This document shows, piece by piece, positions 7,140-27,802 of a stretch of 27,804 bases of DNA. A model generated the notes under the pieces. That model was given only the letters and a program-made list of their open reading frames with translations. It was not told the origin of the DNA and did no database searches. The stretch's first letter is position 1. Each line of letters starts with the position of its first letter. Origin of the DNA: Candidatus Thalassarchaeaceae archaeon (GTDB taxonomy: Archaea; Thermoplasmatota; Poseidoniia; Poseidoniales; Thalassarchaeaceae); the NCBI GenBank assembly GCA_030747675.1, contig JASLKH010000023.1:1-27804 (forward strand), read 5' to 3'. A program made the translations under genes and the position numbers.

Positions 7140-7212
7140 GGGCTCGTGGTCTAGCGGTTATGACGTCGCCCTTACAAGGCGAATATCACCAGTTCAAATC
7201 TGGTCGGGCCCA
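7140..7212 (+). tRNA. tRNA-Val(TAC): tRNA-Val (anticodon TAC), intronless, CCA not encoded
   Basis: Acceptor stem GGGCTCG/CGGGCCC, D-arm GTCTAGCGGTTATGAC, anticodon arm TCGCC-CTTACAA-GGCGA, T-arm ACCAG-TTCAAAT-CTGGT, discriminator A7212 followed by CTA rather than CCA. Confidence 0.97.
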
Positions 7213-26642: not shown

Positions 26643-27329
26643 TCATTCCCCATCTTTGATGGGGAATGGTATATCTGGGAATATATGTGGCCAAAGCGAA
26701 CGACAATCTTTTTCTCGAACATGGGGGACGCCCGCATCTTCAAATCCAGTAATTGCACTTTCTTTCAAACCATTGAATCCAATGAAATGACTTCCGGGAA
26801 TTTGCATGGATAAATCAGTGACATTGTCACCGATGCTGACAATTTCAGAGGGTGAGAACTGGTTAATTCGAGCAAGTTTAGACACCATTTCACCCTTTCC
26901 ATGAGCAGGGACTCTCACAACACCATCATCTAGCAAAAATCCATCTTCATCATATTGAAATCCATTTGAAACCCAATCATCGACTTTGAGGAGTTTGGCA
27001 ATAGAACCAATCAGAAGATCTACTCCTGCACTCACAATAGCAACATACACGCCTTGTTCCTTTAGTGCCTCAACCAAATCTCTAGCCCCATCCATCAAAG
27101 TAACGCCTTGATAGCAACGCATCAATTCATCACGATGAATAGTTGATTGTACTGATTTCCATTTCCCTATATCATCAGCCATGAATTCTTTATCTGTAAG
27201 CTCACCACGGATAAATCGATCAAGCATTTCACCACTATCGGTGCCAAAGAAATCATGAATTATTCTCCATGATGATACGGTGTCAATTAGAACGCCATCA
27301 CAATCAAAACAAACAGCCTTGATTGCCAT
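26643..27329 (-). CDS. HAD-superfamily phosphatase (subfamily IB, phosphoserine-phosphatase-like), 228 aa
   Basis: Motif I FDCDGVLID, motif II VSAG, motif III K (HGKG), motif IV SIGDNVTD. GGTGA lies 4 nt before the ATG, and the stop is 6 nt before the next gene's start. Confidence 0.88.
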   Translation of the reverse strand: MAIKAVCFDCDGVLIDTVSSWRIIHDFFGTDSGEMLDRFIRGELTDKEFMADDIGKWKSVQSTIHRDELMRCYQGVTLMDGARDLVEALKEQGVYVAIVSAGVDLLIGSIAKLLKVDDWVSNGFQYDEDGFLLDDGVVRVPAHGKGEMVSKLARINQFSPSEIVSIGDNVTDLSMQIPGSHFIGFNGLKESAITGFEDAGVPHVREKDCRSLWPHIFPDIPFPIKDGE

Positions 27330-27333
27330 GAAA

Positions 27334-27338
27334 TCACC
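27334..27338 (-). promoter_or_regulatory. GGTGA Shine-Dalgarno-like site (representative; similar sites at 22699-22705, 21921-21928, 4981-4985)
   Basis: GGTGA or GGAGTGA found 4-5 nt upstream of four ATG starts. In malK and the amylase the TGA is also the upstream gene's stop codon. Confidence 0.65.
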
Positions 27339-27363
27339 AAAATATAGGGAAAGACGGGAGATT

Positions 27364-27439
27364 AATCCCCCTTCCTGCCGAAGCAGGAAGGGGGACTCAA
27401 GCGGGCACTTGCGCGCCCACTTGCCACCCTTTAGGTGGC
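27364..27439 (-). ncRNA. Candidate structured RNA element: three stacked hairpins with GCAA (GNRA) and C(UUCG)G tetraloops
   Basis: Minus strand: GCCACC-UAAAG-GGUGGC, AA, GUGGGCGC-GCAA-GUGCCCGC, UUG, AGUCCCCCUUCCUGC-UUCG-GCAGGAAGGGGGAUU. The G-U wobbles pair only on the minus strand. No family recognised. Confidence 0.55.
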
Positions 27440-27460
27440 CCCTGTGGTTATCTTAACGCC

Positions 27461-27802
27461 TCAGAATTGCGGCGAAATTGATGGTGGGTTGAACGAAGCA
27501 GTCCATGTCATCAATGTATACGAATTCCCACCAGCAGGATTGTACGATAGTATAATCGTAGCATCCTCAATGACTTCATTGCCATTTGCTGGATCTGTCA
27601 TTCGAATCTGAATGAAGTCGTTCGCACCGAATCCGGTGGAACAATCGACATTACAGTTGATTGAATCCTTGAACGTCACCAATTGATCGCTGTTAGACGG
27701 AACGAATCCGTATACACCAGCTGGGTTTGCTAGGCTAGTAGTATGTGTCTGTGCGACACCAGTGGAGTTCAACCACTGTACCTTCACAAACACAGCCTGT
27801 GT
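27461..27802 (-). CDS. C-terminal part of an uncharacterised protein (5' truncated by window edge); possibly pilin/archaellin-like or another exported beta-rich protein
   Basis: The frame stays open to the window end (..TQAVFVKVQW..). Composition is T/S/N/G-rich with a CxxxC pair. The pilin guess is weak because the diagnostic N-terminus is outside the window. Confidence 0.5.
   Translation of the reverse strand, partial: TQAVFVKVQWLNSTGVAQTHTTSLANPAGVYGFVPSNSDQLVTFKDSINCNVDCSTGFGANDFIQIRMTDPANGNEVIEDATIILSYNPAGGNSYTLMTWTASFNPPSISPQF

Follow-up and report, generated by a model that had tools for sequence, protein, structure and literature searches.

What does a very stable, branched RNA fold do in the 131 nt that separate the stop codon of a giant ORF from the ATG of a HAD gene? 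The window analysed here is an entire contig (C23, 27.8 kb, or 27,804 nucleotides) of a 1.68-Mb, 78%-complete assembly of a Thalassarchaeaceae archaeon, and this short spacer, which holds the whole element, lies close to one of its ends. A sequence-only reading had described the region 27330–27460 as a GC-rich triple hairpin directly upstream of an operon, and had offered a cis-regulatory leader or attenuator, a small RNA, a stabilising 3' or 5' structure and a mobile remnant as possible roles. The triple hairpin itself is beyond chance: the sense strand is the minus strand, on which positions 27439–27366 form three adjacent perfect hairpins, and RNAfold gives this strand an MFE of −71.1 kcal/mol (z = −5.97), a stability equalled by none of 200 shuffles; the values for the plus strand are −58.7 and z = −4.0. 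When the 282 intergenic regions of the assembly were compared, the element was the most stable 110-nt segment (−66.8, the runner-up reaching −58.7), and a genome scan found three adjacent strong hairpins only here. The GC content of the element is 60–76%.

Read in the sense direction, the element opens with a conserved, single-stranded, purine-rich box, AAGAUAAC followed by CACA (27454–27443), which is immediately 5' of the structure and in which A6, C7, A9 and A11 are invariant (alignment A2). A GGG (27442–27440), invariant in 27 distinct sequences, is the candidate 5' strand of a closing helix, P1. Hairpin 1 (27439–27423) has a GCCACC/GGUGGC stem of 6–7 bp and an A-rich loop of 3–5 nt, and its six pairs are all invariant in the same 27 sequences. 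Hairpin 2 (27422–27399) has 10 bp and a GCAA tetraloop in the window; the loop varies among relatives (UUCG, GCAA and others), and compensatory changes affect 7 of the 12 pairs in the model, with 98.4% of alignment cells paired. It is followed by a GAG linker (27398–27396), part of an invariant UGAG (T55, G56, A57, G58) that may pair with the CUC of the 3' flank, and by hairpin 3 (27395–27366), made of 15 bp and a UUCG tetraloop, where 8 of 11 model pairs show compensatory changes and 99.7% of cells are paired. The 3' flank (27365–27356) consists of a linker, 5 nt long in the window and variable in both length (3–7 nt) and sequence, and of CUCCC (27360–27356; C94, T95, C96, C97 and C98 invariant), which is a candidate for the 3' strand of P1 or for the partner of GAG. 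A pyrimidine-rich tail with a single U4, a degenerate U-tract, occupies 27355–27339, and the ribosome-binding site and start codon of HAD follow (27338–27327), with GGUGA (27338–27334) and the ATG (27329–27327) exactly where they had been placed. The stems of 6, 8 and 15 bp initially described, with spacers of 2 and 3 nt, differ slightly from those given by RNAfold (7, 10 and 15 bp, separated by 0 nt and by GAG), and the description is otherwise correct. The three G–U pairs exist as described, hairpin 1 having one of them and hairpin 2 the other two. A kink-turn (L7Ae-binding), the hallmark of which is tandem sheared G–A pairs beside a 3-nt bulge, was rejected, the candidate AG/GA positions at the base of hairpin 2 behaving like Watson–Crick pairs, with compensatory changes (columns 33–64 and 34–63).

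A covariance model, R1, built from 17 syntenic intergenic regions, matches 16 of the 151 sampled genomes of the family: 12 of the 15 from the genus of the window, both of those from genus g8, and one contig, g1-like in appearance, of a g3 genome. The g3 genome in question (G061) has two HAD copies, on C40 and C191; the one on the element-bearing contig is 79% identical to the HAD of the window and the other 65%, which suggests that the contig was mis-binned or transferred, and g3 is not counted as a third genus. A metagenome pattern scan combined with R1 extended the set to 36 matches, 27 of which are distinct in the alignment, and the element is found at the same site in two genera of Thalassarchaeaceae, uncultured Marine Group IIb archaea. 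We discarded 24 metagenome pattern matches that proved to be hairpins of other kinds (one example precedes a bacterial cold-shock-like gene), and a scan of genome contigs with too loose a pattern, which returned mainly chance hairpins in GC-rich bacteria. An unrelated contig (metagenome Ga0164242; L171:135-330(+), L219) carries four consecutive tetraloop-capped hairpins, the first with the stem GCCACC/GGUGGC; it is not matched by the model.

In the alignment, 99.3% of cells are standard pairs, and 15 of the 32 pairs undergo compensatory changes. None of 500 shuffles attains any of five covariation measures, and the signal is lost when the partner columns are slid by 1–3 positions. Covariation is confined to hairpins 2 and 3: hairpin 1, the junction bases and the candidate closing helix are invariant, and so, in the 27 distinct sequences, are the basal 4 bp or so of each arm. 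R1 scores are 78–123 bits on the sense strand and about 21 bits on the antisense strand, a gap which, together with the G–U pairs, fixes the minus strand as the sense strand. The selection at the RNA level that the sequence-only reading had proposed for the minus strand is supported by compensatory changes, G–U pairs and sense-strand scores alike. Mean pairwise identity is 0.84 in the element, where 43 of 113 columns are invariant, 0.64 in the last 105 nt of the upstream gene, 0.80 in the first 90 nt of HAD, and 0.59, with a single invariant column, in the spacer before HAD. In conclusion, the element is a real, strongly covarying RNA structure.

This structure belongs to no family that we could recognize. 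With Rfam 15 at the gathering threshold, the sole match in the whole window is a tRNA at 7140–7212, and permissive scans (E up to 10) of the element and of a consensus-like relative stayed far below gathering (best 24 bits versus 79). Rfam 15 gave no match to hammerhead, twister, SRP or tRNA, in agreement with the absence of such signatures noted earlier, nor to twister-sister, pistol, hatchet, HDV or known riboswitches. A sigma-70/terminator scanner, a tool uninformative for archaea, returned nothing at the element, and nothing relevant was found in the literature on Poseidoniales riboswitches. The element is absent from RNA catalogues and was previously uncatalogued. It is present in one copy per genome, in its own genome (G000) as in relatives, always at the same syntenic site, and a scan of viral contigs with a specific pattern gave 0 matches; the single copy and the constant position refute the idea of a MITE- or REP-like remnant.

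The position of the element is best understood from the gene that precedes it. In the window this giant ORF is cut by the contig end, and its last 113 codons with the TGA stop (27463–27461) occupy 27802–27461 on the minus strand. Its orthologues, found in six genera, are open frames of about 4,500–4,700 amino acids, with HAD always next and in the same orientation; the giant ORF is also located at L163:7859-17917(-) and L164:37-8034(+), and its sole Pfam match, some 150 amino acids before the C-terminus, is to an archaeal type IV pilin N-terminal domain. The stop codon is TGA in all 36 unique sequences, and the element begins 5–14 nt after it (median 10), whereas the distance from the element to the HAD start is 21–56 nt, and about 110 nt in genus g8. 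The description of the element as upstream of the operon is only half of the picture: a HAD gene does follow, but the element also starts 7 nt past the TGA of a co-oriented ORF. A role as a locus-boundary marker is refuted, as a co-oriented gene of about 4,600 amino acids ends 5–14 nt upstream every time. These positions indicate that the element is intercistronic and that its location is tied to the end of the giant gene. Stop-codon read-through or recoding was considered and rejected, because the structure starts 16–25 nt past the stop and the window has a further in-frame stop after it.

Downstream, tightly packed genes on the minus strand (27329–17123) encode HAD, an SBP–permease fusion, a permease, an ABC ATPase and a 1,610-amino-acid GH13 amylase, with gaps or overlaps of at most 6 nt except for a 35-nt overlap ahead of the amylase ORF. 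The HAD ORF is at 26643–27329, minus strand (PF00702/PF12710), and Pfam matches support an alpha-glucan locus and the SBP–permease fusion. Most members of the genus have a fourth hairpin in the spacer that separates the element from HAD (for example L013:1607-1652(+), L008 and L015). The 3' base of this hairpin pairs with the first three bases of GGUG, with a UA-to-CG covariation, and it would add translational control of HAD in the species that carry it; it is missing from the window, where the spacer is about 20 nt shorter, and from several lineages. A separate hairpin of 11–12 bp (26669–26643, minus strand) spans the HAD stop (26645–26643) and a G-rich stretch 6 nt before the SBP–permease ATG (26636), and may mask the SBP–permease ribosome-binding site.

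Simpler structures preceded by the same box are present elsewhere in the genome of the window. At four other loci, a stop codon is followed by 20–35 nt, the box, a GC hairpin of 15–18 bp, and a run of 7–10 U. Here the box is AAGAU(A/G)AC, located 4–6 nt before a single GC stem that begins with G's, in the sense orientation relative to the upstream gene; the hairpin has a UUCG-type loop and the U-run often continues GUUUCAAAU. These box, hairpin and U-run modules are at C19:6952-6991 (-), C35:34222-34259 (+), C99:16031-16064 (+) and C83:231-258 (+) of G000 (loci L271–L273; relatives L274–L295), and the genes ahead of the four modules encode an MC1-like chromatin protein, two membrane proteins and a pilin-like protein. 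When the 57 box-like sites of the genome are ranked by the stability of the fold downstream, the four modules and the element take the first five places by far (−29 to −35 kcal/mol, the next being −18). The MC1 module is kept across the genus, with a nearly invariant box and a hairpin that varies even at its base. All 7 sampled genomes of this genus contain a box followed by a hairpin-sized gap and T7; in the 12 other genera there were two matches only, in one genome, neither with a hairpin. The module looks like a terminator or a 3'-end protector with an upstream box, and as far as could be found it is undescribed. The same genome also has, between convergent genes (G000:C47:24758-24795(-)), a 17-bp UUCG hairpin followed by U7-GUUUCAG and devoid of the AAGAUAAC box, hence this box is not obligatory for hairpin/U-run units.

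The element shares with the modules the box (27454–27443), the orientation after a stop codon, and a stem that starts with G's shortly after the box, features that are conserved in its relatives. It differs from them in having three hairpins instead of one, a degenerate pyrimidine tract instead of U7–10 (no run of T longer than 2 occurs in the 95 nt next to the box), and a constant core where the base of the module hairpin is variable. We propose, with a probability that we put at about 0.45, that the element is a branched, U-poor derivative of this genus-specific 3'-end module, and acts as a leaky terminator or as an RNA-stability barrier. It would be the 3'-end module of the giant-gene transcript, placed inside a longer co-transcript: the single-hairpin module, with its box, GC hairpin and U-run, would have given rise to a three-hairpin branched derivative at the giant-gene locus, where the U-run would have largely decayed and where no promoter appears to fit before HAD. 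RNA polymerase would mostly read through into the HAD, ABC-transporter and amylase genes, and the stable fold, as a leaky terminator, an exonuclease barrier or both, would uncouple the level of the 14-kb mRNA upstream from the level of the operon RNA that follows it, and so set their ratio.

Several observations support this proposal. The position of the element tracks the giant gene, with a near-constant distance to its stop and a variable distance to HAD. In 29 of 36 sequences the stretch from the element to the HAD start is devoid of U4, the window having one, and the spacer before HAD holds the ribosome-binding site and no conserved TATA-like box. The scarcity of U4, the lack of a TATA-like box in this short spacer and the tight packing downstream make read-through the simplest account of how the HAD, transporter and amylase genes would be transcribed, although a promoter inside the coding end of the giant gene is possible. 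From these features we infer read-through, co-transcription and a barrier or terminator function, and among the roles initially listed for the element the attenuator and the stabilising 3' or 5' structure fit best. Two observations point the other way. The core of the element is more constrained than the module hairpin, as the base of the MC1 hairpin varies in the same genomes; this invariance, and an identity of 0.84 compared with 0.64 in the adjacent coding sequence, exceed the needs of a simple stability barrier, and suggest that the invariant hairpin 1 and the junction may have an additional sequence-specific partner, either a protein or a tertiary fold. In addition, genus g8 has the element, yet no box, hairpin and U7 module was found there, which makes derivation from the module family uncertain.

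In Methanococcus maripaludis, it is U4 tracts that define the U-tract terminators, which act together with aCPSF1/FttA; neither a hairpin nor a preceding box is part of the definition. Termination there is the more efficient the more U4 tracts there are, and is weak where U4 is missing (PMC8716108). The element resembles them by its location just past the stop codon (36 of 36 sequences), and the single-hairpin modules of the genus resemble them by ending in U7–10, the signal that sets efficacy in M. maripaludis (PMC8716108), but the element itself mostly lacks U4 (29 of 36) and has three long GC hairpins and an invariant core. The element and the modules together suggest that, in this lineage, some 3'-end signals contain a hairpin preceded by a conserved box, an arrangement that falls outside the current U-tract/aCPSF1 picture of archaeal termination. 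In bacterial operons, intercistronic stem-loops and REP sequences, such as those in the Escherichia coli malE–malF spacer, stabilise upstream mRNA segments. The likeness is that of a very stable structure between genes that are presumably co-transcribed, in a sugar-uptake locus, with a predicted block to 3'-to-5' decay and differential expression as the outcome; however, REPs are multi-copy and bacterial, whereas the element is single-copy, archaeal and branched, with a core of invariant sequence. Marine Group II archaea count among the ocean's most abundant microbes; to our knowledge none has been grown in culture, so their gene regulation is known only from sequence. The element lies where a surface-protein gene of about 14 kb meets a polysaccharide-uptake operon, and is listed in no catalogue.

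The invariant core raises the main alternative, that of a cis-regulatory sensor in the leader of the HAD, ABC-transporter and amylase genes: a metabolite or a regulatory protein would be bound by hairpin 1 and the junction, and read-through or translation thereby controlled, as in a riboswitch-like or protein-dependent attenuator. We regard this as less likely than the leaky terminator or stability barrier. Specific binding sites usually show themselves as an invariant core amid arms that covary, the conserved structure is supported by covariation, as that of an aptamer would be, and the downstream genes form a coherent sugar-uptake pathway. In addition, the fourth hairpin of most relatives pairs with the start of the ribosome-binding site, and the invariant CUCCC can pair with either GGG or GAG but not with both at once, which could constitute a switch. 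The pairing probability of GGG (27442–27440) with CCC (27358–27356) is 0.18 in the window and 0.21 on average, and a mean of 0.33 is obtained for the rival GAG/CUC, by which hairpin 3 is lengthened beyond a bulge; because the GGG and CCC strands are both invariant, covariation cannot test the closing helix. The three hairpins are established; the four-way junction is a plausible candidate, its closing helix having a low predicted pairing probability. The search for a pairing that would switch with an expression platform yielded none, GGG/CCC versus GAG/CUC being the sole competing pairing; no pairing joins the core to the fourth hairpin, both co-fold in MFE structures, and this hairpin is absent from the window and several lineages. 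Furthermore, nearly all invariant bases can form Watson–Crick pairs, leaving few unpaired conserved positions for a pocket, the variable distance is the one to the supposedly regulated start and not the one to the upstream stop, and HAD orthologues in genera with no detected giant-gene homologue have no such leader. Junction riboswitches (purine three-way, SAM-I four-way) are similar in that covarying helices emanate from a conserved junction with a ribosome-binding site downstream, with which a hairpin pairs in relatives of the element. Unlike metabolite riboswitches, the element has one locus per genome in two genera only, a narrow lineage, and it has no Rfam match (E up to 10) and few unpaired conserved bases. 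The more ambitious version, a new class of archaeal regulatory RNA in which a junction sensor with a CUCCC pairing switch gates read-through out of the giant surface-protein gene and into the operon for alpha-glucan uptake, is unlikely; were the sensor reading true, it would mean a conditional terminator/antiterminator in Marine Group II archaea, built on an undescribed box–hairpin module.

The other alternatives concern the processing or the nature of the element. The box and the structure might be a processing signal cut by an endonuclease (aCPSF1, RNase J, RNase P or RNase Z), so that the co-transcript is split and the end of one product protected, an RNA of about 105 nt being possibly released as a by-product or sRNA. 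The conserved single-stranded box directly 5' of a structure at five loci and the cloverleaf-like shape speak for cleavage, as would, if it derives from RNA, a metagenome contig (L173) that ends 2 nt past the element on the sense strand; but neither ARAGORN (27200–27600) nor Rfam detected a tRNA-like feature, no D- or T-loop motif is present in the arms, and no more than 3 bp are available for a candidate acceptor stem. We consider it rather unlikely, and it overlaps the leaky terminator or stability barrier, with which it is compatible rather than exclusive. A length of about 105 nt, strong covariation and high conservation are also reminiscent of stand-alone structured RNAs, but an independent small RNA gene with its own promoter, lying between these genes by chance, is improbable: the 5–14 nt after the stop leave no room for a promoter, the 30–40 nt upstream are coding and have no conserved TATA-like motif, no strong U-run terminator follows the element in 29 of 36 sequences, and the element was never found outside the giant-gene/HAD pair. 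Least probable of all is an element acting as DNA, with hairpin 1 serving as operator to a transcription factor that responds to sugar, or with the whole region being a MITE/REP remnant, a recombination site or a cruciform. The inverted repeat of hairpin 1 is perfect and invariant, without covariation, so that for this arm taken alone RNA and DNA are inseparable; nevertheless, the spacing of its half-sites varies from 3 to 5 nt, which makes an operator unlikely, the other arms have G–U pairs, model scores are strongly strand-asymmetric, and the element is single-copy per genome, with no terminal repeats and no viral-contig match.

The comparison with sister genera is in keeping with an element attached to the giant gene. 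HAD orthologues are present in all 13 sampled genera of the family, and no comparable structure was found before HAD in the genera where no giant-gene homologue was detected, which argues that the structure follows the giant gene and not HAD. Genera g2, g3, g6 and g10 have the giant gene and HAD and are unmatched by R1; with filters off, the covariance model gave only weak matches at the syntenic spot (E 0.002–0.05), so the fold is not conserved there. Different GC-rich hairpins with stable tetraloops occupy this place (L224, L226, L227 and L228 in g6; L231–L234 in g3; L235 in g2; L236 and L239 in g10). The g3 array begins with CAGGGCCACC, as does hairpin 1 of the element. In g6, the hairpin series ends in a hairpin with a U-rich tail, followed by an AT-rich spacer of 150–250 nt, and at L224 and L228 this terminal hairpin/U-rich unit is in tandem, in 2–3 copies.
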